From positions 369-64,368 of the forward strand of contig CAYVTR010000007.1 in assembly GCA_964454905.1 (NCBI GenBank): DNA of 64,000 nucleotides. Direction: 5' to 3'. Every line of letters begins with the position of its first letter. The stretch's first letter is position 1. The notes below the pieces were generated by a model. That model did no database searches. It had not been told where the DNA came from and saw nothing but the letters and a program-made list of their open reading frames with translations. Made by a program: the position numbers and the translations under genes. Origin of the DNA: an uncultured Woeseia sp. Its GTDB lineage: Bacteria > Pseudomonadota > Gammaproteobacteria > Steroidobacterales > UBA11654. Shown in pieces: positions 7,498 to 55,103 of this stretch.

Positions 7498-8528
7498 CAA
7501 ATCTTTCTCATATGCCTCCCATTAGAGATCAATTAGGCAGAGCGTTGCGAGATCTTAGAATCTCTGTTATGGATCGTTGTAATTTTAGATGCGTTTATTG
7601 TATGCCCGAAGACAAGTTTCATCCAGGGATTAAATTCCTACCGTCTAAAGAAAGATTGAGTTTTGATGAAATGCTTAGACTGGTAAGAATTTTTACTAAC
7701 CTGGGTGTCAGTAAAATAAGAATCACAGGAGGTGAGCCTTTACTCAGGGTCAGCCTAACTGATTTTATAGGAGATCTCTCCACTATTGATAAAATTAAGG
7801 ACATTGCTCTTACCACCAATGGAGTGTTACTGAAGAAGTATGCTTATGAGTTAAGAGCCTCTGGTATTGATCGTATAACAGTCAGTCTGGATTCTATTGA
7901 TCCTCATGAATTCAAACTAATGACAGGAGGCAGAGGTGATCTGGATCGAGTGTTAAGTGGTATAGATGAAGCTCAACGAGCAGGCTTTAAGGACATTAAA
8001 ATTAATGCAGTTATCAAAAAGGGAATCAATGAAAACAATATTCTAAAAATGGTTGAGTATTTTCGAGATCAACCAGTGATTCTTAGATTTATTGAATACA
8101 TGGATGTGGGTAATATTAATGACTGGCAGCAACAAGAAACGATTCCCAACTCAGAAATTATAGAATTGATATCAAATAAATGGTCCCTTAGTCCAATTAA
8201 GCAGAATTATGAAGGTGAGGTGGCTTCTCGTTTTATCTTTGATGATATTGGAACTGAGATTGGTTTTATTTCTTCCATGACTAATCCTTTTTGTGGTTCA
8301 TGCACCAGAGCAAGACTGTCATCAGATGGTAAGTTATACAATTGTTTATTTGCTTCAAAAGGTATGGATATTAAGTCATTGATAAGATCAGAAATAGACG
8401 ATAATACAATAGAAGAAAAGATAATCTCAATTTGGCAATCAAGAGATGACCGATATAGCGAGCTAAGATATCTTAATCAAAACAATAAGGAAAAAGAGAA
8501 AGTAGAAATGCATTACATAGGAGGTTAA
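7494..8528 (+). CDS. moaA: GTP 3',8-cyclase (radical SAM)
   Basis: The radical-SAM motif CNFRCVYCMP, RITGGEPLL, and the C-terminal cluster motif CGSCTRARLSSDGKLYNCLF. Its start overlaps the ald stop (ATGA). Confidence 0.9.
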   Translation: MTNLSHMPPIRDQLGRALRDLRISVMDRCNFRCVYCMPEDKFHPGIKFLPSKERLSFDEMLRLVRIFTNLGVSKIRITGGEPLLRVSLTDFIGDLSTIDKIKDIALTTNGVLLKKYAYELRASGIDRITVSLDSIDPHEFKLMTGGRGDLDRVLSGIDEAQRAGFKDIKINAVIKKGINENNILKMVEYFRDQPVILRFIEYMDVGNINDWQQQETIPNSEIIELISNKWSLSPIKQNYEGEVASRFIFDDIGTEIGFISSMTNPFCGSCTRARLSSDGKLYNCLFASKGMDIKSLIRSEIDDNTIEEKIISIWQSRDDRYSELRYLNQNNKEKEKVEMHYIGG

Positions 8529-8650: not shown

Positions 8651-9487
8651 TTGAAAACAACAAGTCGTATTACTGTTCATAAAAATACTGAAGGTATTAC
8701 TCAAGAAATATCAGATGAAGTTGTCATTGAGGAGCCATTAGAATTTACTATTTGCTTTGGTCCCGCTTCATCTAGGTCTAACAAAAATATTGCTATTACA
8801 ATGCGAACACCGGGCAATGATTTTGAATTAGCCATTGGATTCTTATTTTCTGAAGGTGTGATCAATAATAAACACGATATTCTCTCAGTATCCAGAAATA
8901 AGGGATTAGTCGATGATTCTAATCTTGAAAATACTGTGTTTATTGAGCTCAATGAGTCTGTGAAATTGGACCCAGATAAGATTCGAAATTTTTATATTAA
9001 TTCATCCTGTGGTATTTGTGGTAGCTCAATGGTGGCAGGCATCTCTAAGATACAGCCGATTGATAGTCATGCGAGTAATCTAGAAATTGAAGAGTCTGTT
9101 CTAAGACAACTCCCTGAGAATCTGAGACAAAATCAAGATGCATTCGGAATAACAGGTGGATTGCATGCATCGGCTCTTTTTAATCTCAATGGAGAGATAC
9201 TGCATTTATTTGAAGACGTGGGTCGTCATAATGCATTGGATAAATTAATTGGACAACAGATAAATGAACATGCATTGCCACTGTCCAAATATGGTTTACT
9301 GCTGAGTGGTAGAACCAGTTTTGAGTTAGTGCATAAATCGGCATTAGCAGGAATTCCTATAATAGTAGCAATTGGTGCTCCTTCCAGCTTAGCAATTGAG
9401 GCCGCATGGGAATATGAAATCACTTTGATTGGTTTTTTGAACTCAGATCGTTTTAATATTTACTCTTATCCAAAGAGAATAGTTTGA
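8651..9487 (+). CDS. fdhD: formate dehydrogenase accessory sulfurtransferase FdhD
   Basis: SSCGICGSS and EDVGRHNALDKLIG motifs. TTG start as in the ORF track, so the start is uncertain. Confidence 0.8.
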   Translation: MKTTSRITVHKNTEGITQEISDEVVIEEPLEFTICFGPASSRSNKNIAITMRTPGNDFELAIGFLFSEGVINNKHDILSVSRNKGLVDDSNLENTVFIELNESVKLDPDKIRNFYINSSCGICGSSMVAGISKIQPIDSHASNLEIEESVLRQLPENLRQNQDAFGITGGLHASALFNLNGEILHLFEDVGRHNALDKLIGQQINEHALPLSKYGLLLSGRTSFELVHKSALAGIPIIVAIGAPSSLAIEAAWEYEITLIGFLNSDRFNIYSYPKRIV

Positions 9488-9516: not shown

Positions 9517-10020
9517 ATGATTAGGAACAAATTTTTGATTTTATTTTTTATGGTACTTATTTTTCCTGTTTTGCTGAATGCACAAGGAAATAATGGAAGA
9601 GGAAAGTGCATGCAACCATTTGGTATCTCTTACTATCTGGTAGAAGGGGGAGACGAAGATGAGTGGCTTGAACTGTATATGAAGTGGCATTATCCTCTGA
9701 TGCAATATGCCTTAGATCATGGGTCTATTATTGAGCATAAACTTTTTGTGCCAGATGGTCATGGTATTGAAGCTCAATGGACATTTGCCGTTTCTTTTCT
9801 ATTTCCAAACTCACAAGAAAGCAAGCCCGCACCTTTAGGTCGAGCAGAATTAATTACAAAACTTTATGGCAATCAAATGGATGATTATATTGCTGGCGAA
9901 CAACGACGCTGGGAACTAACAACCAAACACTGGGACACTGATTTTATTGAGCTCGATAAGTCAGAAATCCCTCTTTCCGTATACAGACCTTCTTTAGGAG
10001 GCTGTGAAAAGAAAAATTAA
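9517..10020 (+). CDS. hypothetical exported protein
   Basis: The N-terminal signal-like segment is MIRNKFLILFFMVLIFPVLLNAQ. I recognise no family. Confidence 0.5.
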   Translation: MIRNKFLILFFMVLIFPVLLNAQGNNGRGKCMQPFGISYYLVEGGDEDEWLELYMKWHYPLMQYALDHGSIIEHKLFVPDGHGIEAQWTFAVSFLFPNSQESKPAPLGRAELITKLYGNQMDDYIAGEQRRWELTTKHWDTDFIELDKSEIPLSVYRPSLGGCEKKN

Positions 10021-10465: not shown

Positions 10466-11395
10466 CTAGCCATCTACTGCCAAGATAGACTTTTCTGCAC
10501 TCCTAACCTTGGTTATCAGCATCGTACCTAATCCAATGATGAAGAGTGATAAATAAGGCTCGTAAGGCCAAAATGGCAGCCACAATACCAGATCTGAAGA
10601 CCACGCTGACGCGGTCAAAAAATCAGTAACACGTTCTTGCCAATAGAGCCCGGGAACTGACCAAATAAGACCAAAGACGATAATGATGCCGCCCAATGCC
10701 CTAAGTGCAAGCGGCATGTTGTTCTCAGCGGCATTCTTATTCGTGGTTTGCCAGCGTTGCTTGCCCCAGGCTGCAATTCTCAGTGCGAACGCAAGAAAAC
10801 CACCCCAGTAGTACACATAGTCAAGTGGTACCGGATTCTCATAACAGGAGAGCCCGTTACAGAGACTCCACCAATAGGTGCTAAAGGGATAGGCCCAGAG
10901 GAAATAGATCCCACTCTTGTGCAGCAACTTCCATTGTTTAGAGCTCAAGTGTTTACGGCCAAAGTGGAAAGATGTCACCACCATGGCGGGAAGAAAGATA
11001 TAGCCGATGCTCCCTTCTAGCTCATCACGAAACAGATAGACTTCTTCAAAGTAGTAATTGTGAAAAAAGTAAGACATTATAAAAATGAACAAGCCTTGCC
11101 ATGCCATGGCAACTGCAAAACATAATCCAATATATTTTCGGTTACGCATTAACCACATTGAGAAGGGTCCTGGATATAGAATCTGAATCGAAGATATTGC
11201 AACTACTAGATAGATGAAAGGCACTGCCCAGCGCACAGAAAACCCAATCATTTCTGACACACCAGATCCAGTTGACATATCAACCCCCATCATGGCAATG
11301 ACCATGATCATGCACATTGGAATAGAAATAAGCCAGAACAAATTCCATTTGTTAATGACTCTATTCTTTAATGTTGTTTTAAGATCAGTACTCAT
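10466..11395 (-). CDS. polytopic inner-membrane protein, unknown family
   Basis: 309 aa, Trp-rich, with about 8 hydrophobic segments. The 3' two-thirds of the gene is visibly more GC-rich than its surroundings. Confidence 0.6.
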   Translation of the reverse strand: MSTDLKTTLKNRVINKWNLFWLISIPMCMIMVIAMMGVDMSTGSGVSEMIGFSVRWAVPFIYLVVAISSIQILYPGPFSMWLMRNRKYIGLCFAVAMAWQGLFIFIMSYFFHNYYFEEVYLFRDELEGSIGYIFLPAMVVTSFHFGRKHLSSKQWKLLHKSGIYFLWAYPFSTYWWSLCNGLSCYENPVPLDYVYYWGGFLAFALRIAAWGKQRWQTTNKNAAENNMPLALRALGGIIIVFGLIWSVPGLYWQERVTDFLTASAWSSDLVLWLPFWPYEPYLSLFIIGLGTMLITKVRSAEKSILAVDG

Positions 11396-14091: not shown

Positions 14092-15666
14092 ATGTCTGAC
14101 ACGAATAAGAATGTTGTTAAAGTGCTTAAAGCAGCAGTAGGAAAAGATAATGTTTTGACAGATCAAGAATCCCTGTCTTTCTATTCAATGGATGTTTATC
14201 GATCTATAGAAACACCCATAGCAGTTGTTCAACCAGGATCCACAGAGGAGCTTCAAGAAGCTGTACGAGTAGCGACAGGTTTAGATGTTGCTATAGTAAC
14301 GCGTGGAGGAGGAGCATCATACACTGATGGCTACCTTCCCACCACTGCTGAATCAGTCATTGTCGATACTTCTCGACTTAATAAGATTCTTGAGATCAAT
14401 GAAGAGGACATGTTCATTACTGTTGAACCTGGGATTACTTGGGCGGAAATGACTGACGCATTAGCTGAGAGTAATTTAAGAACACCTTTTTGGGGACCCT
14501 TTTCAGGATTAAAAGCAACAGTTGGTGGTTCAACTTCACAAAATAGTGTAAGTATGGGAACCAGTAGATACGGAGGATCCCCAGAGTCAATACTTTGTTA
14601 TGACATTGTTTTAGCAAATGGCGATATTCTGAAAACAGGCTCTTCTGCAATGGAACAAAGTTCACCATTTTTCAGGCACTATGGACCCGATTTAACCGGC
14701 TTATTTTCTGGTGATGCTGGGTCATTGGGTGTTAAGGCAAAAATTACACTGCGTCTAATAAAGTTACCCAGTCATAGTCTCACTTGTTCTTTTGGTTTTA
14801 AGAGCTACGATGCCATGAGCCAGGCGATGGCAGCTGTAGCAAGAGAAGAGTCAGCTTCAAGTAATTGGGGCTTGGACCCTAAATTACAGCAGGGTCAGCT
14901 TGGTAGCACTTCATTCAGTGATGCGCTCAAAGCCGCTTTTGCTGTTTTAAAAACAGCTCGTAATCCATTTGAGGCTTTTGTTCAACTGGGTAAGATGGCC
15001 CTTGCAGGAAAGCGATTTTTAACTGGTTACGATTATTCAGCTCACTTTGTCGTAGACGGCTATTCAATCAGTGAAGTCAAAAGTAAATTGGCACAAACTA
15101 GAAAAGCACTGTCTCCTTACGGCACAGAAATTGCAAACACCATACCAACAGTTCTAGGCGCGATGCCTTTCATGCCTCTTTATCCTATTTTAGGACCTCA
15201 AGGAGAGAGGTGGGTTCCGATGCATGGCTTATTGTCTTTTTCAAAAATGCAGGAGATGCATCAGCGATTAATGGATCTTTACAGAGAAAAGAAAGGTGAA
15301 ATGGAAGAATGTTCAGTTTATGCAGGTGCAATGTATATGACGTATTCCACACATAGTTTCCTCTATGAGGTGGCTTTATATTGGCAAGACGATCGGACTG
15401 TTTATCATAAACTTTACTTGGATCAAGACTATCTTGATATGCTACCAACTTACCCTGAAAATAAAAAAGGCAGAGCTTTAGTTGCTGAACTTCGCGCTTC
15501 AATTCAGGAAATATATTCAGATCTTGGTGCCGTTCATTTTCAAGTAGGAAAGAGCTATCCATATCAAAAAGGCAGGCAAACTCTAGCCGCTGAAACTCTA
15601 AGGGCAATAAAGAAGTCGGTGGATCCAAAGAATCTAATGAATCCAGGAGCACTAGGCCTTGAATAG
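14092..15666 (+). CDS. FAD-binding (PCMH/VAO-type) FAD-linked oxidase
   Basis: The FAD-binding N-terminal domain (VVQPGSTEELQEAVRVA...IVTRGGGASYTDG) and the typical C-terminal tail KSVDPKNLMNPGALGL. I chose the ATG at 14092, which follows AGGAGG. The track starts at a TTG at 14071. Confidence 0.8.
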   Translation: MSDTNKNVVKVLKAAVGKDNVLTDQESLSFYSMDVYRSIETPIAVVQPGSTEELQEAVRVATGLDVAIVTRGGGASYTDGYLPTTAESVIVDTSRLNKILEINEEDMFITVEPGITWAEMTDALAESNLRTPFWGPFSGLKATVGGSTSQNSVSMGTSRYGGSPESILCYDIVLANGDILKTGSSAMEQSSPFFRHYGPDLTGLFSGDAGSLGVKAKITLRLIKLPSHSLTCSFGFKSYDAMSQAMAAVAREESASSNWGLDPKLQQGQLGSTSFSDALKAAFAVLKTARNPFEAFVQLGKMALAGKRFLTGYDYSAHFVVDGYSISEVKSKLAQTRKALSPYGTEIANTIPTVLGAMPFMPLYPILGPQGERWVPMHGLLSFSKMQEMHQRLMDLYREKKGEMEECSVYAGAMYMTYSTHSFLYEVALYWQDDRTVYHKLYLDQDYLDMLPTYPENKKGRALVAELRASIQEIYSDLGAVHFQVGKSYPYQKGRQTLAAETLRAIKKSVDPKNLMNPGALGLE

Positions 15667-15670
15667 GCAA

Positions 15671-17461
15671 ATGAAAAATTCAATAACCCTGCTACTGACC
15701 ATCCCTTTATTAGCCTGTTCTCAGTATTCTGATCAATTACAAACCAAACACCCTCCATACAATGAAAGACCTAGAGTAGGGGTTCTTTATGTGTCTCACG
15801 GAGGAAATGAAACGTATGGTGAAAAACAGGTTTGGGAATCCACTGTTCAAATTTTTTCGTACGATAAGAACAGTCCAGTCTATCAGCGAATTTTGTGGAA
15901 CCCTGATTATTGGCCTCAATTCTATGGATTTGGGAATGCGACAAAAGAAATAGGCAAGTATTCTTTTGAATATGAGCGAATAGGGGGTGTTGACCCCTAC
16001 CCGAAATCTAAAGCTGAACTCACTCAACATTTAGTTGAACTGATGAATGCTTATGAAAATAAATACGAAATGGATTTTATTGTAGATAAAATGTCTTGGT
16101 TAAGTCCCGAGATAGTCGAATTAGCCAATCCAAGAAGGCTGTACTACCCAGGAACAGAAGATGGCTCAATACTGGCTTATTGTGGCAAGGGAGATGACTC
16201 ATGGTTAGACTGTAATCCTGATCGATATGATATTGATGGACCCATCGAGAGACTTCTAAAGATAGGTGTTGAGCGATTTATAATTGTGGATCTAACAACA
16301 GCCGGTGCTCGTTTTTCTAAAACCTTCGACGTATACACCGTAGCTAAGCAGGTTATTGATAAGCATAATCAAGCCACAGGGGAAAACGTGGTTATTGAAT
16401 GGGTTAATGATCCAGATAATCTGATGGTGAAATCATACCCACAGGATGCATCTGGATGGACACGATCTAAGGGTAAACCTGAGATCAACCCAATTATTGC
16501 AATTTCAGATTTCCCTAATCCTGTTATTGAAGACCTGAGATTAGCTAAATTCCAAGTGGAGGGTATTGCATCACAATTTAATGAAAACGTGTCACTTAAG
16601 GACACGGGTGTTCTCATGATTAATCACGGAATTCGAAATGGTGATGAAGTATTTGATCCAAAAATTAACGACACGCTTACTCTTAATAAGAACATTAAAA
16701 ATCTCTTACTTCAAAACTTTCCTGAATTAAAAACACAAAATATTTTAGGAGGTTGGTTTGGTGAAATGGTTATCAATCAAAGAGTGAAACCATCCCCACC
16801 GGCTTTCACACAAATGGAAAGGACTCGGGAAATGCGAGGAGAGAATTTAGGTTATATCGTCCTTCATGACAGCGATGGTGAAGTACCAGCAGGTGAATGG
16901 GGTTATCGTTATTGGGAAGCTCTTGATCAACTAAAGAAAAATAAAGTCAAGCATATCGTCATTGTATTTCCTCAAATCATGGAAAATTCTGTTTTAAACC
17001 TTGTTGAAGTTCCCAATCAGATAGCCAAAGAGATTGGTTATAAGAATTGGCTGCATTTCGATACATTGGATTTTGATACCTACCCAGAATACGGTCACCC
17101 CTTTGCTGATTATTGGGGAATATGGGTGTCAACGTCATGTGCTATTCCTTCGGATACTAATCAATCTGAGCAGTGTTGTTTAACCATGGGGGGTTGCTCA
17201 ACTGGGCAATCATACCCACCACCTCGGCAAGCTAAGCTTAATGAGAGACGCAATGATCTAGATCCTTCTTTGGCTTATGATGTTTCTGAATTTGGGCACT
17301 TAGGCTATAGGTCTGCGTTAGGTGCTCCAAATCTCAGTCAACCCGTCCAAAATCAATATTCAGGAACTTGGTCAATGTGGAAAGTGACCGAAGATCACCA
17401 CGCTTTAGCTAAGTTTCTTGCAGATAAGGTCGTTGAACATATAGAATCAAGTCAAAATTAA
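15671..17461 (+). CDS. lipoprotein with ferrochelatase/CbiK-like (class II chelatase) two-lobe architecture and Cys-rich C-terminus; function unknown
   Basis: Lipobox in MKNSITLLLTIPLLAC-SQ. By-eye similarity to ferrochelatase blocks (GVLYVSHGG; YERIGGVDPYPKSKAELTQHL; GVERFIIVDLTTAGARFS; GVLMINHGI; KHIVIVFPQIMENSVLNLVEV). Five Cys occur in STSCAIPSDTNQSEQCCLTMGGCSTG. Confidence 0.5.
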   Translation: MKNSITLLLTIPLLACSQYSDQLQTKHPPYNERPRVGVLYVSHGGNETYGEKQVWESTVQIFSYDKNSPVYQRILWNPDYWPQFYGFGNATKEIGKYSFEYERIGGVDPYPKSKAELTQHLVELMNAYENKYEMDFIVDKMSWLSPEIVELANPRRLYYPGTEDGSILAYCGKGDDSWLDCNPDRYDIDGPIERLLKIGVERFIIVDLTTAGARFSKTFDVYTVAKQVIDKHNQATGENVVIEWVNDPDNLMVKSYPQDASGWTRSKGKPEINPIIAISDFPNPVIEDLRLAKFQVEGIASQFNENVSLKDTGVLMINHGIRNGDEVFDPKINDTLTLNKNIKNLLLQNFPELKTQNILGGWFGEMVINQRVKPSPPAFTQMERTREMRGENLGYIVLHDSDGEVPAGEWGYRYWEALDQLKKNKVKHIVIVFPQIMENSVLNLVEVPNQIAKEIGYKNWLHFDTLDFDTYPEYGHPFADYWGIWVSTSCAIPSDTNQSEQCCLTMGGCSTGQSYPPPRQAKLNERRNDLDPSLAYDVSEFGHLGYRSALGAPNLSQPVQNQYSGTWSMWKVTEDHHALAKFLADKVVEHIESSQN

Positions 17462-28297: not shown

Positions 28298-28762
28298 ATG
28301 TTAAATCATATAGATAAAAAGAACAGACCAACAATGGTGGATATTTCTTCCAAGAAAACCACTAAAAGAACAGCAATTGCAACAGCTAAAATCATTTTTC
28401 CTGAAGCGGTCAAGAACCATTTTAAAGACGGTGATTTGCAGACAAAAAAAGGCCCTGTGATTGATACAGCAATTATTGCCGGAACCATGGCAGTTAAGAA
28501 AACCCATAATCTTATTCCATTTTGTCATCCTCTAAATATTAATGCCTGTCATATCTCAATCGAGCCGGATGATAATCAGGATTTTATTATTACCTGTGAA
28601 GTTGGTATTGAACATAAAACAGGTGTTGAAATGGAAGCTTTAACGGGAGTATCAGTAGCAGCGTTAACTGTTTATGACATGTGTAAATCTCTAAGTCATG
28701 ACATTGTTATCACTGATATTTCTCTTCAAAAGAAAACAGGCGGCAAAACAGATTTAGTTTAA
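28298..28762 (+). CDS. moaC: cyclic pyranopterin monophosphate synthase
   Basis: MVDISSKKTTKRTA, LIPFCHPL and GVEMEALTGVSVAALTVYDMCK. Confidence 0.9.
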   Translation: MLNHIDKKNRPTMVDISSKKTTKRTAIATAKIIFPEAVKNHFKDGDLQTKKGPVIDTAIIAGTMAVKKTHNLIPFCHPLNINACHISIEPDDNQDFIITCEVGIEHKTGVEMEALTGVSVAALTVYDMCKSLSHDIVITDISLQKKTGGKTDLV

Positions 28763-28785: not shown

Positions 28786-29364
28786 ATGACACCACTTAAA
28801 GGGTTGATTTTAACTGGGGGCCATAGTCGAAGAATGGGCCGGGATAAGGCTCTTATAAATCTAGAGGGATCCACTTTACTCGAGAGAACTTATAATCTAT
28901 TGAACTCATTTATAGAGCAGGTTTTTGTTTCCATCAGACACGATCAAAGACATGAGACTAAACGAGCTCAATACTCACTGATTATTGATCAGGAGGGGTA
29001 TTCAGGACCTATTGCTGGTATTTTATCTGCAGGGGATTATGATCCTCATTCTGGATGGCTGGTGGTGGCTTGTGACATGCCCTTTCTTGATAACCAAACC
29101 ATAGATCAATTGATTCGTGCTAGAAACCCAGAAACAACTGCAACCCTTTTTCAGTCCATAGACGGATCAGGTGTTGAACCTTTATGTGCTATTTATGAGC
29201 CAAGATTTTTTAGTGCCATTGCATCTGATTCCGAATTTTTAAAGAATGCTGGCCCTCGAGAAACGTTATCAAAAATGAATCTAGAGATCCTTGATCCATT
29301 GAATCCAGACGCATTGTTTAGTGCGAATGTTTCGATTGAAGAGATAATTAATAGACTTAGATGA
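28786..29364 (+). CDS. mobA: molybdenum cofactor guanylyltransferase
   Basis: GLILTGGHSRRMGRDKAL and VVACDMPFL. Confidence 0.8.
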   Translation: MTPLKGLILTGGHSRRMGRDKALINLEGSTLLERTYNLLNSFIEQVFVSIRHDQRHETKRAQYSLIIDQEGYSGPIAGILSAGDYDPHSGWLVVACDMPFLDNQTIDQLIRARNPETTATLFQSIDGSGVEPLCAIYEPRFFSAIASDSEFLKNAGPRETLSKMNLEILDPLNPDALFSANVSIEEIINRLR

Positions 29365-32629: not shown

Positions 32630-32832
32630 TTAGCCTCTCTCCTTAACTGTTTGGTTGGATTATAAATTATATGAGTTTGGATGTAATTAATCTTTTATCT
32701 CAACTATTAAAACAGGAATAATTAAGACTACAAGAATAGTTCGTAGTAAAATCCTTTTATATATTTAATAAAACTGGATATAACTGCAATAGGTAAAAAA
32801 ATTTGATGGTTTTCAACTTTAAGGAGATTAAG

Positions 32833-33285
32833 ATGAGCAAGCTACTTGTAATTCTTATGATGACAGTGTTGTCTCTCTCAGCATTAGCTGCAGACAAGCA
32901 TTTTGAGCGAAATCAGCTCCCTCAACTAAACCAAGAGATACTTGACTCAAGTGATTACTCTTATGAAAAAACCACTATTCCCACCAAAGACATTATTCCT
33001 GTTCAAACACAGAGAGTTAGAGGACTTAGAGTTCAAGAAAAAGAATGGCTATTAAATGATGAATATAGACCTTTGATCATTGATCGAGATAACTATCTCA
33101 TAGACGGACATCATAGGTTAGATGGAATTAAAGAGCTTCAAATAAAAAATGTAAGAGTATTAAGAGTCAATGCAAGTATAGAAGAAATTATTGAAGCATT
33201 TAAAAAGTATCAAGATCATACTCCTACTTATGAGCCTATTACATCCACTCCAGATCAAAGAGATCTAATAACTATAACTCAGTAA
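32833..33285 (+). CDS. exported ParB/sulfiredoxin-like N-terminal domain protein
   Basis: The ATG follows AAGGAG. Signal peptide MSKLLVILMMTVLSLSALA. The core is IIPVQ...RPLIIDRDNYLIDGHHRLDGIKEL (DGHHR motif). Confidence 0.5.
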   Translation: MSKLLVILMMTVLSLSALAADKHFERNQLPQLNQEILDSSDYSYEKTTIPTKDIIPVQTQRVRGLRVQEKEWLLNDEYRPLIIDRDNYLIDGHHRLDGIKELQIKNVRVLRVNASIEEIIEAFKKYQDHTPTYEPITSTPDQRDLITITQ

Positions 33286-33290
33286 ATGAA

Positions 33291-34937
33291 ATGAGCAGAG
33301 AATCTATGGAATTTGATGTGGTTGTGGTTGGCGCTGGACCAGCAGGCCTAAGTGCATCTATTCGTTTGATGCAGCTATCCAATGACAATAACTTAGATTT
33401 GAGTGTCTGCTTACTAGAGAAAGGTTCTGAAATAGGAGCCCATATCATTTCAGGAGCTGTCATAGAGACCAGATCTTTAGATGAGTTACTGCCTGATTGG
33501 GATGAGGGGAATAATTTTCTTCAAACCCCTGTAATTGATGACAAAATGCTTTTTCTAACTGGAGAAAATACAAGTATTTCAGTGCCAAAGTTTTTAATGC
33601 CTAAAACCATGATGAATCATGGGAATCGAATTATCAGCTTAGGATCTATGTGTCAGTACCTAGGAAGAGAGGCTGAGAGTCTTGGAGTTAACGTTTTTCC
33701 TGGTTTTCCTGCAGTTGATCTCATTGAAGAAGAGGGAACAATTGTTGGTGTGATCACGGGTGACATGGGCCTTGATAAGAATGGTGAACCTAAAGACGGT
33801 TATGAGATGGGTTATGAACTACGGGCCAAGCAGACAATATTTTCTGAAGGCTGTCGAGGTAATTTGGGTAAACAATTAATCAAAAAATATTCTTTAGATG
33901 AAAATTCTGATCCTCAGCACTACGGTATTGGATTTAAAGAAGTTTGGAGTATAGACCCTGAAAAGCATTCAGAAGGCTTAGTAATGCATACTGCTGGCTT
34001 CCCATTAGACAATAACACTGAAGGAGGGGGCTTTATTTATCATGCTCCCAATCACCAAGTGTTTATTGGTTTAATTGTCTCACTTGATTACGCTAACCCC
34101 AATTTAAGCCCTTTTGAAGAGTTTCAGAGATGGAAGACACATTCAGAGCTTAAGGAATTACTAAAAGATGGTGAACGAATCTCATATGGAGCAAGAGCAC
34201 TTAATAAAGGCGGCATTCAATCAATACCTCAACTTACTTTTCCTGGTGGGGTCATGATTGGTTGCGATGCTGGGTTCATGAATGGAGCTAAAATTAAAGG
34301 AACCCATACCGCAATGAAAACAGGCATTATTGCAGCTGAAACGTATATTCAATCGATTGAAAATGAAACTCGAAGTGATGAAACTGATACTTTTGAAGAT
34401 CACTTAAAACAGTCCTGGGTATTTGATGAGTTACATCGAGCTAGAAATTTTTCACCTTTCCAGAAAAAGTTTGGTTTATTGCTGGGTTCTATTTTTATCT
34501 GGATTGATCAGAATTTATTTTTTGGAAAACTTCCTTTTACTTTATCAGCAAAGGGTGAGGATTATGCTAAATTATCACCCTTCGATAAAGCTGCAAAAAA
34601 GAATTATCTAAAACCAGATAATATTGTCACTTTTGATCGTACTTCATCAATCTATTTATCTGGAGTTAATCATGAAGAAGATCAACCGTGCCATCTTCAT
34701 TTAAACGATCCGACTATACCAATTCAGAAAAATTTACCTGAATTTGGTGAGCCTGCAAGACTGTATTGCCCTGCAGGTGTTTATGAGGTCCTTGAATCTG
34801 AATCAGGAGAACCGTATTTTCAGATCAATGCTCAAAATTGTATTCATTGTAAAACTTGCGATATCAAAGACCCATCACAGAACATAGACTGGCGTTGCCC
34901 TGAGGGAGCGGGCGGTCCAAATTATACTGATATGTGA
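33291..34937 (+). CDS. electron-transfer flavoprotein:ubiquinone oxidoreductase
   Basis: FDVVVVGAGPAGLSA and a C-terminal 4Fe-4S region (LYCPAGVY...NCIHCKTCDIKDP...GGPNY). Confidence 0.9.
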   Translation: MSRESMEFDVVVVGAGPAGLSASIRLMQLSNDNNLDLSVCLLEKGSEIGAHIISGAVIETRSLDELLPDWDEGNNFLQTPVIDDKMLFLTGENTSISVPKFLMPKTMMNHGNRIISLGSMCQYLGREAESLGVNVFPGFPAVDLIEEEGTIVGVITGDMGLDKNGEPKDGYEMGYELRAKQTIFSEGCRGNLGKQLIKKYSLDENSDPQHYGIGFKEVWSIDPEKHSEGLVMHTAGFPLDNNTEGGGFIYHAPNHQVFIGLIVSLDYANPNLSPFEEFQRWKTHSELKELLKDGERISYGARALNKGGIQSIPQLTFPGGVMIGCDAGFMNGAKIKGTHTAMKTGIIAAETYIQSIENETRSDETDTFEDHLKQSWVFDELHRARNFSPFQKKFGLLLGSIFIWIDQNLFFGKLPFTLSAKGEDYAKLSPFDKAAKKNYLKPDNIVTFDRTSSIYLSGVNHEEDQPCHLHLNDPTIPIQKNLPEFGEPARLYCPAGVYEVLESESGEPYFQINAQNCIHCKTCDIKDPSQNIDWRCPEGAGGPNYTDM

Positions 34938-34948
34938 AGGTAATTGTA

Positions 34949-35419
34949 ATGATTGAAAAAATTATACCCAAATCAGCAAACAATAATTACTTAGGGTCTC
35001 CCATAGCTTTTTACGGCATGATTTTATTTGTGTTGTTAATGACTTTTAGTGCTTATATGCATTTTCTTCAACCTCAATATGCTGCCAATGAAATAGCAAG
35101 TATTATTGTTTTTGAATCAGTGCCTGACCCCAATCACATTATCTATATGGCTTTTTCTTTGTGGGGTTTGCAACAAGTGAGCTTTGTTATACTCAATGTT
35201 ATTGTACTTTTTGCGTATCGTAATCTGATCCCATTGATGTATATATTATGGATATTTACTTGGCTGATGAGGCCCTTAGTCGTTTCACAGTTATACCCAT
35301 TAACCTCTGAATACACATCAGGAATCACTCCTGGGAAAGCTGGATTACCATTTATACTTTCTTATTTGCTCGTCATGTTGATAATGTCGCTTAGACAACC
35401 TAAAGACAAAGCGCTTTAA
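34949..35419 (+). CDS. hypothetical membrane protein
   Basis: About 4 hydrophobic segments. The ATG at 34949 follows GAAGG. The track ORF starts at a GTG at 34934. Confidence 0.45.
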   Translation: MIEKIIPKSANNNYLGSPIAFYGMILFVLLMTFSAYMHFLQPQYAANEIASIIVFESVPDPNHIIYMAFSLWGLQQVSFVILNVIVLFAYRNLIPLMYILWIFTWLMRPLVVSQLYPLTSEYTSGITPGKAGLPFILSYLLVMLIMSLRQPKDKAL

Positions 35420-44485: not shown

Positions 44486-44569
44486 TGCCGAGAGAGAGAC
44501 TCGAACTCTCACGGGTTTAACCCCACCGGATTTTGAATCCGGCGCGTCTACCAATTCCGCCATCCCGGC
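44486..44569 (-). tRNA. tRNA-Leu (anticodon CAA), CCA not encoded
   Basis: The reverse complement reads GCCGGGATGGCGGAATTGGTAGACGCGCCGGATTCAAAATCCGGTGGGGTTAAACCCGTGAGAGTTCGAGTCTCTCTCTCGGCA. It has a long variable arm, and the acceptor stem pairs (GCCGGGA/TCTCGGC with one G-U). Confidence 0.9.
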
Positions 44570-49961: not shown

Positions 49962-50768
49962 TTAGAATAGTTTTTCTAATCTGTCGTCATATTTTGAAAC
50001 AACGTCCTTCATCGCATCAAAAATCTTTGGAGTTCCACATAGTATACTGCCGCTATCAACCGGGTCTTGACCAGGGATAAGATTTTCAACCAATCCACCC
50101 GCCTCTTGTATGAGTAAAACACCGGCAGCAACATCCCATGGTTTCAGCCCAAATTCCCAGAATCCATCATAACGACCGGCAGCAACATAAGCTAAGTCAA
50201 GAGCAGCAGAGCCTGGTCTTCTGATAGCACCTACAATTTTGGTGAAGTCAGTAAAAATATCTAAATACACTTCAAGCCAATCCGATTGATCTCTATAAGG
50301 AAAGCCTGTTCCTAGTAAGCTACCCTGGAGTGTCGTTTGCTTGCTGACTCTAATTCTTCTGCCATCCAGCAGGCTCCCCATGCCTCTAATGGCTGTAAAT
50401 AATTCTTGTCTAGATGGGTCATAGATTACAGCTAGCTCAAGTCGTCCCTTAATTTTTAAAGCAATAGACACACAGTAAACAGGGAACCCGTGGATATAAT
50501 TTGTGGTGCCATCAATGGGATCAATAATCCACAAAAAGTCTGATTCGTCTCCTTGAAGACCATGTTCTTCCCCCAGAATGGTATGATCAGAGTAACGTCC
50601 ACGTATAATCTCTATAATGGCTTTTTCTGCTTCCTCATCTACATAGGTTACAAATTCATTATAAGCTTTGGTTTTAATATCACCGGCGTTGATCCGATTA
50701 AAATTAATCTGAGCAATATCGCCCGCTTTTCTTGCAGCTTCTACGGCAGTGTTTAAAAATGCTTGCAT
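49962..50768 (-). CDS. suhB: inositol monophosphatase family protein SuhB
   Basis: ILGEE, WIIDPIDGTTNY and WDVAAG. I placed the start at the ATG at 50766-50768 (MQAFLNTAVEAARKAG). The track extension to 50921 overlaps trmJ. Confidence 0.85.
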   Translation of the reverse strand: MQAFLNTAVEAARKAGDIAQINFNRINAGDIKTKAYNEFVTYVDEEAEKAIIEIIRGRYSDHTILGEEHGLQGDESDFLWIIDPIDGTTNYIHGFPVYCVSIALKIKGRLELAVIYDPSRQELFTAIRGMGSLLDGRRIRVSKQTTLQGSLLGTGFPYRDQSDWLEVYLDIFTDFTKIVGAIRRPGSAALDLAYVAAGRYDGFWEFGLKPWDVAAGVLLIQEAGGLVENLIPGQDPVDSGSILCGTPKIFDAMKDVVSKYDDRLEKLF

Positions 50769-50859: not shown

Positions 50860-51597
50860 TTGAAGATTATTTTGAATAAGAATATACAGTTTGTACTTGT
50901 TGAGCCCTCACATCCTGGCAATATCGGAGCTGTGGCTAGGGCAATTAGTACTATGGGATTTCACCAACTTGCTTTGGTGAAGCCGAAGGAGCATCCACAT
51001 CCTGAATCCAGGGCTCGGTCTTCCTCTGCATTAGAAGTGTTGTTAAATGCCGGTGTTTATAACGAATTGGAAGATGCCGTTGGTGATTCTGGGTATGTGA
51101 TTGGTACCACAGCACGAAATCGAAGAATCAGTGTGCCCGTGTCCTCAATAGGAGACATGGCTCATGATATTTCAAGCAAAGCAGAGCATCAAAAAATCTC
51201 TATTGTCTTTGGCCCTGAAACCTCAGGACTGAGCAATGAAGACATTGATCGATGCAATCATCTGGTCTATATTCCCTCGAGTGAAGAATATCCTTCACTT
51301 AATCTATCCATGGCTGTTCAAGTTGTTGCCTACGAGTTAAAAATGGCTGAGACCATTGACATCAAAGAAACAGTAGAAAGAAACCTTGCTTCAGGACAAG
51401 AGATGGAATTGTTTTATGAGCATTTGAAAGAGGTGCTGTTAGAAACTGGGTTTCTTAACCCAAGAAACCCAAAGCAACTGATGAGAAGATTAAGAGCTTT
51501 ATTTAATAGAGCCGAACTGGATGACAATGAAGTCAATATTATGAGAGGTATATTGGCGTCTTATAAAAAATCAAGAAAAGAAATCAATGAAGAATAA
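50860..51597 (+). CDS. trmJ: tRNA (cytidine/uridine-2'-O)-methyltransferase TrmJ (SpoU family)
   Basis: VLVEPSHPGNIGAVARA, FGPETSGLSNE and LNLSMAV. TTG start as in the track, so the start is uncertain. Confidence 0.8.
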   Translation: MKIILNKNIQFVLVEPSHPGNIGAVARAISTMGFHQLALVKPKEHPHPESRARSSSALEVLLNAGVYNELEDAVGDSGYVIGTTARNRRISVPVSSIGDMAHDISSKAEHQKISIVFGPETSGLSNEDIDRCNHLVYIPSSEEYPSLNLSMAVQVVAYELKMAETIDIKETVERNLASGQEMELFYEHLKEVLLETGFLNPRNPKQLMRRLRALFNRAELDDNEVNIMRGILASYKKSRKEINEE

Positions 51598-52750
51598 GAT
51601 CTATTTTGATTACGCCTCCACCACCCCAATAGCAAAGGAGGTCAAGCAAGATATGGCCACTGCCCTCGATGATGATCTTCTTGGGAATGCGTCATCCCTA
51701 GATCATGAGTTTGGCTTGGGTGCTAGTCAAGCAATTGAATTGGCAAGACAAGATATTGCAAGCCTTATTAATGCACAAACAGCCGAGATTATTTGGACTT
51801 CTGGAGCCACAGAATCAAATAATTTAGCTTTATTAGGAGTCTGTAATTTTAAACCTCATGACCAACCTTTAAGAATTGTTTCTTCATACGCAGAACATAA
51901 GTCAGTGATTGAACCCCTTATGGGTTTGAAAAGAAAAGGTCATCATGTTGAATTTATCGAACCAAATAAACACGGATACTTAGAACCTGCATCCATTGCA
52001 AAAGCTATGGACAGTGGATGCGATCTTTTTAGTTGCATGCATATAAACAATGAAATTGGCAGCATCAATGACATTGAGTTAATTGGCTCTATGTGTCGAG
52101 AAAGAAAGATTATTTTTCATGTTGATGTTGCTCAAAGTATTGGCAAGCTTCCTCTCGATGTTGAAGAAAATAATATTGATTTAATGTCTTTATCAGCTCA
52201 TAAAATATACGGACCCAAAGGAATTGGGGCATTGTTTATTAATCAGAAGACAGTCGGTCGGTTGCAACCGTTAATGTCAGGAGGAGGGCAAGAAAGAGCG
52301 ATTAGACCTGGGACTCTTGCAACTCACCAAATTATTGGCATGGCATCTGCGTATCGACTCGCTAAGGCCACTATGGAGAATGATTTAGTCCACTTAACAG
52401 AATGTCGTGATCTTTTTCTGCGACTCACAAATGTAATTAAGGGGCTAATGATCAATGGGGATATCCATAATACTTTTCCAGGAATTATTAGTATTTCGCT
52501 CCCTGACTTGCATGCAGAAAGCTTATTATTTGCTATGGATAAGGTGGCAATTTCAAAAGGGTCTGCTTGCAGCTCTGAAAGTGATGAACCTTCTCATGTA
52601 TTAAAATCTATGGGTCTTAGTAAGGAGGCAATAGAAGGAACTATTCGTGTCAGTTTTGGCCGACACACCAAATTTAAAGACATTGAGATACTCGCGCAAT
52701 CATTAAAAAAGGCTGTGGATCATTTAAGACTTCTCAAGGGGGGTATCTGA
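51587..52750 (+). CDS. iscS: cysteine desulfurase (IscS/NifS class V aminotransferase)
   Basis: YFDYASTTP, the PLP Lys in SAHKIYGPKGIGALF, and the active Cys in SKGSACSSES. At 387 aa it is shorter than E. coli IscS. Confidence 0.8.
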   Translation: MKNKIYFDYASTTPIAKEVKQDMATALDDDLLGNASSLDHEFGLGASQAIELARQDIASLINAQTAEIIWTSGATESNNLALLGVCNFKPHDQPLRIVSSYAEHKSVIEPLMGLKRKGHHVEFIEPNKHGYLEPASIAKAMDSGCDLFSCMHINNEIGSINDIELIGSMCRERKIIFHVDVAQSIGKLPLDVEENNIDLMSLSAHKIYGPKGIGALFINQKTVGRLQPLMSGGGQERAIRPGTLATHQIIGMASAYRLAKATMENDLVHLTECRDLFLRLTNVIKGLMINGDIHNTFPGIISISLPDLHAESLLFAMDKVAISKGSACSSESDEPSHVLKSMGLSKEAIEGTIRVSFGRHTKFKDIEILAQSLKKAVDHLRLLKGGI

Positions 52751-53122
52751 ATGAACTCATCTGTTGAGATTTTAAAAAAGGCTTTTTTTGACACCGATCA
52801 TGTCTTTAGAACAAAAGATCAAACTGATCAATACACAGTTGGATTTTCTGATAACGCTCAGAACATGTGGGTCAAGTTCTACTTCATCACCAGTCATACG
52901 AAAATTATTGATGTTAAATACGAAGTTAAGGGTTGTCAGTATTTAGTGGCTTTAGCCTCGTTATTCACTCACTCAATCATTAATCAGGATGTTTTGAGTC
53001 TAGCTGATTTCAATTATCAGTCACTGGGGAGTCTGATAGATCTTCCTAAAAATAGACAAGATCGACTTTTTTTGTTGGAAGATGCAGTAAAAGACTGTAT
53101 AAATCACTTTGAAAGAGGCTAA
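52751..53122 (+). CDS. IscU/NifU-N-like fold protein lacking most Fe-S ligand residues
   Basis: It is colinear by eye with E. coli IscU. However, GAPACGD is replaced by SDNAQNM and KIHCSILAEDAIK by RQDRLFLLEDAVK. Only the central GC (KGCQYLVA vs YGCGSAIA) is kept. Confidence 0.6.
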   Translation: MNSSVEILKKAFFDTDHVFRTKDQTDQYTVGFSDNAQNMWVKFYFITSHTKIIDVKYEVKGCQYLVALASLFTHSIINQDVLSLADFNYQSLGSLIDLPKNRQDRLFLLEDAVKDCINHFERG

Positions 53123-53125
53123 ACA

Positions 53126-53449
53126 ATGAATTTATCAGTTACAGACAGTGCAGTAAGACGGTTCAAAGAAAACTTGTCTAGTAAACCTGATGCTATTGGC
53201 TTGCGCATTAGCATCAAATCAACGGGATGCAATGGTTATTCGTATATATTGGACTATGCTGGGGAAATCGCGAGCGATGATAATGTCATTAGTGTTTCAG
53301 ATATATCAATCGTTGTTGACCCTGAAAGCATGACTTTGATCAAGGGAACAGAAATTGATTTTATTGATGAAGGTTTGAACCAGGTCTTCAAATTCAAGAA
53401 TCCTAATGCCACAGGTGAGTGCGGTTGTGGTGAAAGTTTCAGCGTTTAA
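53126..53449 (+). CDS. iscA: iron-sulfur cluster insertion protein (IscA/ErpA A-type carrier)
   Basis: GLRISIKSTGCNGYSY and the C-terminal CGCGESF. Confidence 0.85.
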   Translation: MNLSVTDSAVRRFKENLSSKPDAIGLRISIKSTGCNGYSYILDYAGEIASDDNVISVSDISIVVDPESMTLIKGTEIDFIDEGLNQVFKFKNPNATGECGCGESFSV

Positions 53450-53467
53450 ATCATAAAGGATATTATT

Positions 53468-53866
53468 ATGGAGAGAACACTTTCAATTATTAAACCTGAT
53501 GGTGTTGAAAAACATATTATTGGAGAAATATATAAGCGTTTTGAGCAGGCAAATCTTGCAATAGTTCAAGCAAAAATGATGCATCTAAGTAAAGAAGAAG
53601 CTGAGGGGTTTTATGCCGTTCATAAAGACAGACCTTTCTTTAATGATTTAGTTGACTACATGACTTCTGGACCAGTGATGGTACAAGTTTTAGAAGGAGA
53701 TAATGCCATTAGATTAAATCGAGCATTAATGGGAGCTACCAATCCTGATGATGCCGATGAAGGCACTATCCGTAAGGATTTCGCAACCAGCATTGAACAA
53801 AATATTGTCCATGGTTCAGATGGGCCTGACACTGCTAGAGAAGAAATTAACTTCTTTTTTGGTTAA
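53468..53866 (+). CDS. ndk: nucleoside-diphosphate kinase
   Basis: [12 protein letters not shown] and NIVHGSDG (active His). Confidence 0.9.
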
Positions 53867-53875
53867 TCCAAAAAA

Positions 53876-54961
53876 TTGACCGATCTGCAAAACAATCTTT
53901 TAGGGCTACCACCACAAGAGCTTCAAGAATTTTTTGAGGGTCTTGAGGAGAAAACCTATCGAGCTAAGCAGCTTATGCAATGGGTTTATTCCAAACAAGT
54001 TTATGACTTTAACTCGATGACCAATTTTAATATTGGCTTAAGAGAATATCTTGATAGTCATTGCACTTTAACTTTTGATCTTTCTTCAAGAACTGATGTC
54101 TCGAGAGACGGCACCACTAAATGGCTTATTGGCAAACAAGGTAATCAGATCATAGAGACAGTTTTTATTCCCGAAGATCATAGGGGAACTTTATGTATTT
54201 CGAGTCAAATTGGTTGTTTAATTGATTGCCCTTTTTGTGCAACAGGGCATCAAGGATTTAATCGTAATTTAAAAGCACATGAAATAATTGGCCAGATTTT
54301 AGTTGCCAGGGAAAGTTTGAGTGAAGAAAAGAAGATAACAAATATTGTGTTCATGGGTATGGGAGAGCCTTTAGCTAATTACCCCGAGGTTATTAAAACC
54401 GTCAAAATCTTAAATGATCCCAATGGGTTCAATATTTCAAGACGACGAATTACTATCAGCACCTCAGGTTTAGTGCCCCAATTGAATAAGTTAGGTGATG
54501 AAGTCGGGGTGGCCTTAGCTATTTCTTTGCATGCACCTAATGATAAGCTTCGTGATGAGCTGGTTCCCATTAACCGTAAACACCCTATTGCCGATCTTCT
54601 TGAGGCTTGCTGGTTGTACGCTGAAAAACAGAATTTAAAAACCATTACCTTTGAGTACACCATGTTAAAAGGGGTGAATGATGGAAAAGAGCAAGCCCAG
54701 GAATTAGCTAAGTTATTGAAGAATAAACCCGCAAAGGTCAATTTAATACCCTTCAACACCTTTCCTGGTGTTAAATTTGAGGCCACAGACAGAGAAAACA
54801 TCGATGAATTCAGGAATATCTTATTAGAATCTGGAATAATGACTATAACTAGAAAGACTAGAGGTGAAGATATCCAAGCTGCCTGTGGACAACTTTCTGG
54901 TAGTGTTAGAAATTTAGCCAAGAAAACATTAAGACAAAAACTTAAAAAACAATTACATTAG
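53876..54961 (+). CDS. rlmN: 23S rRNA/tRNA (adenine-C2)-methyltransferase RlmN (radical SAM)
   Basis: YRAKQLMQWVY, the radical-SAM motif CLIDCPFC, MGMGEPL, and C-terminal ACGQL. TTG start. Confidence 0.85.
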   Translation: MTDLQNNLLGLPPQELQEFFEGLEEKTYRAKQLMQWVYSKQVYDFNSMTNFNIGLREYLDSHCTLTFDLSSRTDVSRDGTTKWLIGKQGNQIIETVFIPEDHRGTLCISSQIGCLIDCPFCATGHQGFNRNLKAHEIIGQILVARESLSEEKKITNIVFMGMGEPLANYPEVIKTVKILNDPNGFNISRRRITISTSGLVPQLNKLGDEVGVALAISLHAPNDKLRDELVPINRKHPIADLLEACWLYAEKQNLKTITFEYTMLKGVNDGKEQAQELAKLLKNKPAKVNLIPFNTFPGVKFEATDRENIDEFRNILLESGIMTITRKTRGEDIQAACGQLSGSVRNLAKKTLRQKLKKQLH

Positions 54962-54979: not shown

Positions 54980-55099
54980 ATGTCAGATGATACAGAATCA
55001 AATGTTGTTGAACACATGGTTGCATTAAAGATTATTGGAGTTGCTAGTGTAATCCTTTTTCTAGTGACCTTGGTTGGTATGTATATCTCCCATAACTAA
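54980..55099 (+). CDS. small hypothetical single-pass membrane protein (39 aa)
   Basis: My own translation is MSDDTESNVVEHMVALKIIGVASVILFLVTLVGMYISHN*. The ATG is preceded by AAAGGAG. It is below the ORF-track size cut-off. Confidence 0.35.
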   Translation: MSDDTESNVVEHMVALKIIGVASVILFLVTLVGMYISHN

Positions 55100-55103
55100 G
55101 GGC

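Follow-up and report, generated by a model that had tools for sequence, protein, structure and literature searches.

We describe here a three-gene iron-sulfur (Fe-S) biogenesis locus, iscS'-iscU'-iscA, found in a 64-kb stretch of DNA (hereafter the window) on contig CAYVTR010000007.1 of an uncultured Woeseia sp., in which the predicted U-type protein IscU' retains the fold of the IscU scaffold and lacks three of the four cluster ligands. A preliminary description of this DNA had already pointed to the loss of ligands; what is new is that the neighbouring cysteine desulfurase, IscS', is remodelled alongside its partner. We tentatively propose, with a probability that we put at about 45%, that IscS' and IscU' form a dedicated pair in which the former scaffold now relays persulfide or serves as an adaptor, much as SufU and SufE do.

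The iscU' gene (52751..53122, + strand; all coordinates are those of the window) encodes a protein of 123 residues whose sole Pfam match is to NifU_N (29.9 bits against a cut-off of 22, residues 48-121), while on the curated NCBIfam IscU model (TIGR01999) it scores 23.7 bits against a cut-off of 192.4 and thus falls outside the IscU equivalog. In the AlphaFold2 model, calculated with 25 homologues, the mean predicted local distance difference test (pLDDT) score was 74.6, with the N-terminal 18 residues poorly defined, and the best matches of this model in the PDB according to Foldseek were human ISCU, E. coli IscU and archaeal IscU, with template modelling scores of 0.70-0.74; SufU ranked under IscU/ISCU. 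The NifU_N match and the structural comparison show that IscU', as modelled, possesses the U-type alpha+beta fold of IscU.

For residue-level comparison IscU' was aligned by MAFFT with E. coli IscU, the sequence of which was identical to that of the annotated record, and by HMMER with the IscU/ISCU chains of the PDB, the second alignment agreeing with the first over the C-terminal two-thirds of the protein. Cys62 of IscU' (codon 52934..52936, +) aligns to E. coli Cys63 and is the only ligand position kept, Gln37 and Met39 stand at E. coli Cys37 and Asp39, and Asp104-Arg105 (codons 53060..53065, +) take the place of His105-Cys106. The three-Cys ligand set (Cys37/63/106) is in this way reduced to the Cys63 equivalent, and the counterparts of Asp39 and His105 are missing as well, exactly as the preliminary description had read them by eye. 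As the whole protein contains just two cysteines (62 and 116), a shifted three-Cys site is impossible under any alignment, and the idea that the ligands are present but displaced is excluded by this count together with three agreeing alignments. Judged from its sequence, canonical cluster binding by IscU' is impossible, and the earlier claim to that effect stands. The HscA-recognition motif LPPVK has become LPKNR, with the Leu, the Pro and a basic residue retained, and this reduction to Leu-Pro-x-x-basic matches the absence of hscBA from the locus.

A new metal site made of Cys116 and His119 (a C-x-x-H arrangement in the last helix) was also considered and rejected. Cys occurs at position 116 in just 41 of the 74 family representatives, the others having Leu or Ala there; of the four histidines of the protein, His119 and His74 are unconserved beyond close relatives. 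By helical periodicity, position 116 would lie about three turns away from the old site, and we read Cys116 as a buried structural position.

The loss of ligands is a property of a whole family. A search of 1.84 billion representative proteins with an IscU' family profile gave 340 matches at E < 0.001, most of them with Cys at the Cys63 position, and 264 of the retrieved sequences (74 clusters at 70% identity, which supplied the representatives counted here) carry a common signature. In E. coli numbering, Cys37 is missing and position 39 is Val, Ala or Met, Gly-Cys at 62-63 is invariant, Lys or Arg occurs at 103, Gly or Asp at 105 and Arg or Lys at 106, and the last helix contains an invariant Glu-Asp-Ala. 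The trmJ-iscS'-iscU'-iscA-ndk-rlmN locus was found in four further lineages, once on a contig of 2.83 Mb, and the desulfurase there has 385-396 residues; three of the four have a guanine-plus-cytosine (GC) content of 0.58-0.63, and all loci together span 0.36-0.63. The locus is present in assemblies CAYQEV01, JAPYQN01, CAUZCF01, GCA_937770505.1 and GCA_040255535.1, on the 2.83-Mb contig (ERZ19489113 s3.ptg000004l) and on a scaffold of 194 kb (ERZ23499047 SUTE22-1_SAMN10231922 scaffold_49). All named members come from metagenome-assembled genomes ('Gammaproteobacteria bacterium', 'Candidatus Rariloculaceae bacterium', 'uncultured Woeseia sp.'), and no cultured member was found among the named matches. 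The arrangement is an old, conserved state common to many uncultured Gammaproteobacteria and not a local degeneration.

The same search brought up several proteins outside this family. A protein of 1689 residues with 18 matched stretches (P0052) was set aside as an unrelated repeat protein. Metagenomic U-type proteins with partial ligand loss are numerous (P0059-P0193), some having lost Cys37 and retained Cys63 and Cys106, others carrying Gly, Ser or Asp at position 63, and two proteins of 472-482 residues (P0054 and P0057) contain three tandem IscU-like domains. Ligand-deficient IscU-like proteins thus appear to be recurrent and little studied.

The residues that follow the retained cysteine bear on whether IscU' might still be a scaffold with non-canonical ligation, holding a [2Fe-2S] cluster either across two monomers, each giving Cys62 and His64, or between Cys62, Cys328 of IscS' and IscA. 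Pro-His usually follows Cys63 in the family, with His in 60 of the 74 representatives, and a dimer of this majority form would offer two Cys and two His; there is also a precedent for sharing, in that the IscS cysteine supplies the fourth ligand in the A. fulgidus IscS-IscU complex (reviewed in PMC13066941), and no other obvious scaffold is encoded in the window or in the 10 kb on its left side. In the window protein and in every close relative, however, Gln63-Tyr64 stands in place of Pro-His, positions 37 and 39 are now mostly hydrophobic in the family (Leu/Gln and Val/Ala/Met, respectively), Fdx and HscBA, normally needed for sulfur reduction and for release, are gone from the locus, and a cluster meant for transfer would be poorly supported by one thiol per chain. 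We regard a residual scaffold of this kind as very unlikely.

IscU' is also no product of faulty sequence. Its 123 residues are encoded without any change on at least 24 independent contigs, drawn from several marine metagenomes, which rules out a frameshift, a sequencing error or an assembly error. Homologues fall into subgroups of 80-98%, ~50% and ~35% identity, and the gene order from queA to xseA is identical in all of them. Against two close relatives the ratio of nonsynonymous to synonymous substitution rates (dN/dS) of iscU' is 0.17 and 0.20, the highest in the locus, and these sequence comparisons clearly indicate purifying selection. Across subgroups IscU' is the fastest-evolving product of the locus (48% and 35% identity); IscS' comes next (68% and 54%), level with xseA in the distant subgroup, and the other neighbours, IscA included, keep 57-89% (IscA 73-82%). 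Four residues, Gly61, Cys62, Asp104 and Arg105, are nevertheless invariant in 25 homologues (34-98% identity) that were chosen independently of the family signature, and the most conserved stretch of all is the C-terminal helix motif D-L-P-K-x-x-x-D-R-L-F-L-L-E-D-A.

These figures speak to the view that the locus is a decaying remnant, in which SUF has taken over cluster assembly, IscS' is kept to supply sulfur for other purposes and iscU' is in the course of disappearing. The absence of iscR, hscBA, fdx and iscX from the locus is what such decay would leave behind, and the dN/dS of iscU' is the highest, and its cross-group identity the lowest, in the locus. On the other hand, at least nine lineages, sampled separately and ranging from 36 to 63% in GC content, have an intact open reading frame (ORF), a dN/dS of 0.17-0.20 and invariant motifs are not those of a gene being lost, and translational-coupling signals are preserved. 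Decay is consequently an explanation to which we attach almost no weight.

The desulfurase has changed together with its partner. The iscS' gene (51587..52750, +) encodes a protein of 387 residues (Pfam Aminotran_5, 244 bits) that is collinear with E. coli IscS over residues 1-383 at 43% identity. By sequence it is a type I cysteine desulfurase with an intact catalytic apparatus: comparison with E. coli IscS/1P3W places the lysine that binds pyridoxal 5'-phosphate (PLP) at Lys206 (codon 52202..52204, +) and the persulfide-forming cysteine at Cys328 in the loop GSACSS (codon 52568..52570, +), and His104, Gln183, His205, Lys206, Ala327, Cys328 and Arg354 are kept in IscS' and in 75 of 75 members of its family. 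The preliminary description was right about the PLP lysine and the active cysteine; what it called an IscS-like enzyme is, however, not a standard IscS and belongs to a distinct, short family. On both NCBIfam IscS models IscS' remains under the cut-off (416.7 vs. 548 for TIGR02006 and 413.3 vs. 643.2 for NF010611). In a homology search the first ~80 clusters were mostly of 384-391 residues (shorter ones being partial) and shared 52% identity or more with the window protein, after which there was a step to canonical IscS of 401-411 residues at 46-48% identity (Vibrio, Photobacterium, Colwellia and others). Identity as DndA or NifS was rejected, since the corresponding scores lie under those for IscS and dnd or nif neighbours are absent.

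When 75 short-family sequences were tabulated against 37 canonical IscS sequences, the C-terminal segment from Pro385 on was missing in 75 of 75, IscS' itself ending at residue 387, and a set of surface positions was found to be exchanged. Of residues that are invariant in the canonical set, Arg39 is replaced by Thr or Leu, Trp45 by Lys or Leu and Arg223 by Val or Leu; further exchanges of such residues are Arg219 to Asn or Asp, Arg220 to Lys, Gly or Gln, Lys221 to Glu, Glu309 to His or Asp, Gly310 to Ala and Met315 to Tyr or Phe. The window protein has Leu, Leu, Gln and Val at Arg39, Trp45, Arg220 and Arg223, all four of which are invariant in the 37 canonical sequences. In high-GC relatives the tail and Trp45 are also lost and more of the basic patch is retained, so that their enzymes look like a less derived stage.

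The exchanged positions acquire meaning from work on E. coli IscS, in which W45R abolishes TusA binding and lowers that of ThiI, R220E abolishes binding of ThiI, CyaY and IscX, and R223E abolishes binding of CyaY and IscX and lowers that of ThiI (PMC2854127). IscS' is therefore naturally altered at sites where single mutations uncouple the E. coli enzyme from its other partners. Its IscU-binding surface has been altered too: in E. coli, IscU contacts helix alpha8 (309-316), Glu347 and the C-terminal helix 379-391 of IscS (PMC2854127), and removal of residues 376-404 leaves IscS unable to bind IscU (Shi et al. 2010, PMC2854127). Because both the partner-binding residues and the IscU-binding surface are changed, IscS' would seem to be dedicated to a co-evolved U-type partner.

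From the side of IscU', much of the docking surface appears to have been preserved. The E. coli IscU residues that touch IscS are Tyr3, Tyr11, Gly38, Val40, Lys42, Lys59-Gly64 and Lys103, and the K103E exchange abolishes the complex (PMC2854127). Of the 74 representatives, 65 have Phe at the Tyr11 position (Phe12 in the window protein), and 72 have Lys or Arg where E. coli has Lys103 (residue 102 of IscU'). With Phe12, Gly61-Cys62 and Arg/Lys102 kept, IscU' probably still docks on IscS'. Furthermore, since the side chains of Cys63 and Cys106 in E. coli IscU are ~4 A apart (PMC2854127), the Arg or Lys that replaces Cys106 should adjoin the thiol of Cys62, and a basic neighbour of this kind would favour a thiolate or a bound persulfide there.

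The three genes occupy the orthologous isc position of E. coli. In the annotated record of E. coli K-12 the order is suhB | trmJ-iscR-iscS-iscU-iscA-hscB-hscA-fdx-iscX-pepB ... ndk-rlmN, and the suhB/trmJ and ndk/rlmN flanks are shared by the window, as was noted at the outset. On the left, suhB (inositol monophosphatase family; 49962..50765, -) is divergent from trmJ and is recognised as an ORF with 49% identity to E. coli SuhB whose orthologues match Pfam Inositol_P; trmJ, for the tRNA Cm32/Um32 methyltransferase (50860..51597, +), scores 226 bits on NCBIfam TIGR00050 (cut-off 167), matches Pfam SpoU_methylase, and overlaps the start of iscS' by 11 nt at its 3' end. On the right lie ndk (53468..53866, +; Pfam NDK, 192 bits) and rlmN (53876..54961, +; Pfam RlmN_N and Radical_SAM), the latter encoding a radical-SAM [4Fe-4S] enzyme and so being both synteny anchor and Fe-S client, with hisS further downstream. 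The third gene of the cluster, iscA (53126..53449, +), encodes a canonical A-type carrier of 107 residues in which the ligands Cys35, Cys99 and Cys101 are all present. It matches Pfam Fe-S_biosyn (62.6 bits) and NCBIfam TIGR00049 (113 bits against a cut-off of 58.8), with the SufA and IscA equivalog models marginally under their cut-offs, and is 41% identical to E. coli IscA; for comparison, TrmJ is 41% and SuhB, RlmN and Ndk are 49-55% identical to their E. coli counterparts.

Profile hidden Markov models confirmed that only three genes, the last of them iscA, separate trmJ from ndk; iscR, hscB, hscA, fdx and iscX are absent from this interval, and no SUF system, HscBA, Fdx or second IscU was found in the window or in a further 10 kb leftward. 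The statement in the preliminary description that iscR, hscBA and fdx are missing holds for the locus, the window and these 10 kb. A Shine-Dalgarno-like sequence, AAGGGGGG (52736..52743, +), lies within the 3' end of iscS', 7 nt ahead of the iscU' ATG, and the iscS' stop codon TGA (52748-52750) abuts this ATG in the same frame; in the ~50% and ~35% identity subgroups the two genes overlap by 4 nt in different frames. A single read-through at 52748-52753 would join IscS' and IscU' into one protein. Consensus scans detected no internal promoter or terminator signals over background within the cluster, and co-transcription of the three-gene module with its housekeeping neighbours is the best explanation of this arrangement.

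We hypothesize that an ancestral gammaproteobacterial isc locus was remodelled into the iscS'-iscU'-iscA module and that U-type cluster assembly was abandoned in this lineage, since the ligands and Fdx, HscB, HscA, IscX and IscR are gone together from the locus. IscS' and IscU' would then constitute a dedicated pair in which IscU' docks on IscS', and persulfide would move from Cys328 of IscS' to Cys62 of IscU', within a hydrophobic pocket with the Arg or Lys alongside. As a transpersulfidase or adaptor, IscU' may hand the sulfur on either to the adjacent IscA or to a scaffold, presumably SufBCD, with its genes at another site. The preliminary description had suggested an acceptor or shuttle of persulfide, or a regulator of the desulfurase, and such roles fit the docking residues, the Arg/Lys at 106 and the purifying selection that we deduce from the alignments.

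Several observations weigh against the relay that we favour. Acceptance of persulfide at Cys62 is presumed from the position of this residue, and work on the eukaryotic system points to the Cys106 equivalent. In E. coli, the cysteine proposed as the most exposed first acceptor is Cys37, not Cys63 (PMC2854127). Because E. coli IscS needs the alpha12/tail segment for IscU, an IscS' lacking half of helix alpha12 and the tail must dock its partner differently or weakly. The chemistry around the thiol is not uniform, given that Cys63 is followed by Pro-His in most of the family (Gly-Cys-Pro-His) and by Gln-Tyr in the window subgroup (Gly-Cys-Gln-Tyr). The rapid evolution of IscU' relative to the rest of the locus also counts against the relay. 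Finally, there is a sister group of U-type proteins with the sequence GNPYLIA (P0055, P0066, P0068, P0070 and ~12 more) that have Asn at Cys63 and no conserved Cys at all. These proteins, about equidistant from the main family and canonical IscU, are also flanked by a C-terminally short IscS and a three-Cys IscA (L016:587-997, L017:566-955); their IscS retains the Arg219/220/223/225 patch, and their contigs have a GC content of 0.38-0.39 and different downstream genes. As the trio has been retained with Asn at position 63, the function in the Asn63 group cannot be thiol-based, which weakens a purely thiol-based explanation.

The Asn63 group leads directly to the main alternative, in which IscU' is non-catalytic: it might activate IscS' allosterically or stabilise it, bring IscA or another client to it as an adaptor, or gate the release of sulfur, Cys62 being vestigial or structural. 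That the trio of short IscS, U-type protein and IscA can persist with no Cys at the site agrees with this, as do the many partly ligand-deficient U-type proteins in metagenomes. Apart from a few patches IscU' evolves fast, and its most conserved element, the C-terminal helix, resembles an interface more than a catalytic site. In E. coli, moreover, IscU binding displaces TusA from IscS (PMC2854127), so that an IscU-fold protein can work by occupancy alone. What such a role leaves unaccounted for is the invariance of Gly61-Cys62 in 25 of 25 homologues, the presence of Cys at position 63 in most of the 340 matches and the conservation of Arg/Lys in place of Cys106; a vestigial thiol would be expected to vary like position 116, where 41 of 74 representatives have Cys. 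We consider a non-catalytic IscU' unlikely, though it deserves to be taken seriously.

Returning to the relay through Cys62, it could also operate in a different setting, with IscS', IscU' and IscA as the sole and self-sufficient Fe-S line, free of chaperones and ferredoxin, and with IscA as the first scaffold. The module is the only Fe-S biogenesis equipment in the window and the 10 kb to its left, and the genome clearly requires [4Fe-4S] clusters: the Fe-S clients encoded in the window are RlmN, MoaA, both subunits of an aconitase-family dehydratase, electron transfer flavoprotein-ubiquinone oxidoreductase and a 7Fe-type ferredoxin. The loss from IscS' of the surfaces for other partners, as if for a single task, would likewise suit such a line. 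Even so, we hold it to be improbable.

What the remodelled IscS' still serves is a question on which the scattered molybdenum-cofactor genes of the window bear, namely those for a MoaB/Mog-like protein (2243-2767, -), MoaA (7494-8528, +), FdhD (8651-9487, +), MoaC (28298-28762, +) and MobA (28786-29364, +). FdhD does not belong to the Fe-S clients: the E. coli protein is an IscS-dependent sulfurtransferase, and molybdopterin synthesis in that organism also takes sulfur from IscS.

Other features of the window touch the locus less closely. Between rlmN and hisS there is an ORF of 39 residues, MSDDTESNVVEHMVALKIIGVASVILFLVTLVGMYISHN (54981-55100, +), for whose product a single membrane helix is predicted and whose ribosome-binding site is AAAGGAG; gene calls on several related contigs include it, and its site is occupied by rodZ-ispG in E. 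coli and by a TPR gene and rodZ in high-GC relatives. The segment 35485-41095 (+) encodes a DUF3450 protein, two ExbB/MotA-family proteins, two ExbD proteins, TonB and a TPR protein, and amounts to a TonB energising system of a type common in marine heterotrophs. No Pfam match at E up to 1e-4 was obtained for ORFs of 600 (15659-17461, +), 309 (10466-11395, -), 167 (9517-10020, +), 160 (32803-33285, +) and 161 residues (34934-35419, +), the first of which follows genes for an alpha/beta-hydrolase and an FAD-binding oxidase and precedes DUF1838 and cytochrome c genes. Two tRNA genes, tRNA-Arg(ACG) (1338-1414, -) and tRNA-Leu(CAA) (44486-44569, -), are present. Because the mechanically delimited ORF 973-1386 (PTPS family) runs into the tRNA-Arg gene, its true start must lie further downstream; metagenome gene calls give a protein of 118 residues.

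The U-type scaffold is regarded as the invariant heart of the ISC system from bacteria to mitochondria, and here a lineage has shed the cluster site and kept the gene. If the proposed relay is correct, IscU' would join SufU as another, independent case of a scaffold turned into a sulfur relay or adaptor. It also offers a natural separation-of-function variant with which to ask what IscU does for IscS beyond carrying a cluster, and on which of the IscU cysteines the persulfide is received. There is a practical side as well, in that present annotations call members of the family 'iron-sulfur cluster assembly scaffold protein' or 'NifU-like', and the label 'scaffold' may wrongly credit abundant uncultured marine and other Gammaproteobacteria with a working ISC system. 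We recognised no description of a ligand-less IscU in the literature searched, which does not prove that none has been published.

Among known systems, E. coli ISC shares with the window locus its chromosomal position, a type I desulfurase with Lys206 and the Cys328 loop, an adjoining U-type protein and a three-Cys A-type carrier; it differs in having iscR, hscB, hscA, fdx and iscX, and in that the IscU ligands, LPPVK, the IscS tail (385 on) and Trp45, Arg39 and Arg223 are all intact. The SufE/CsdE proteins resemble IscU', as we read it, in using one conserved acceptor Cys with a dedicated desulfurase and in binding no cluster; the SufE fold is related to that of IscU, and its Cys is shielded in a hydrophobic pocket. 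Their partners, however, are the type II enzymes SufS and CsdA, they are encoded in suf or csd operons and not at the isc position, and IscU' has no SufE-family match in Pfam at E up to 1. Mycobacterium tuberculosis provides a precedent for cutting isc down to the sulfur donor, since iscS alone is left there and SUF assembles the clusters (PMC10848736); the window locus, in contrast, also retains a U-type protein and an A-type carrier. The NifS-NifU-like and MIS systems are likewise minimal pairs of desulfurase and U-type protein without chaperones or ferredoxin (PMC13066941), but MisU and NifU keep the cluster-binding Cys that IscU' does not. The Bacillus-type SUF system, lastly, contains SufU, in which three Cys and an Asp form a tight zinc site and the partner is the type II SufS, whereas IscU' has one Cys at the old site, no plausible zinc site and a type I partner, and scores 14.4 bits on the SufU model TIGR01994 (cut-off 92.5). 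SufU nevertheless combines the IscU fold with a scaffold role given up, a dedicated desulfurase and the absence of the HscA motif; a review argues that it began as a U-type scaffold and became a dedicated sulfurtransferase (PMC13066941), and it is the best functional analogy for IscU'.

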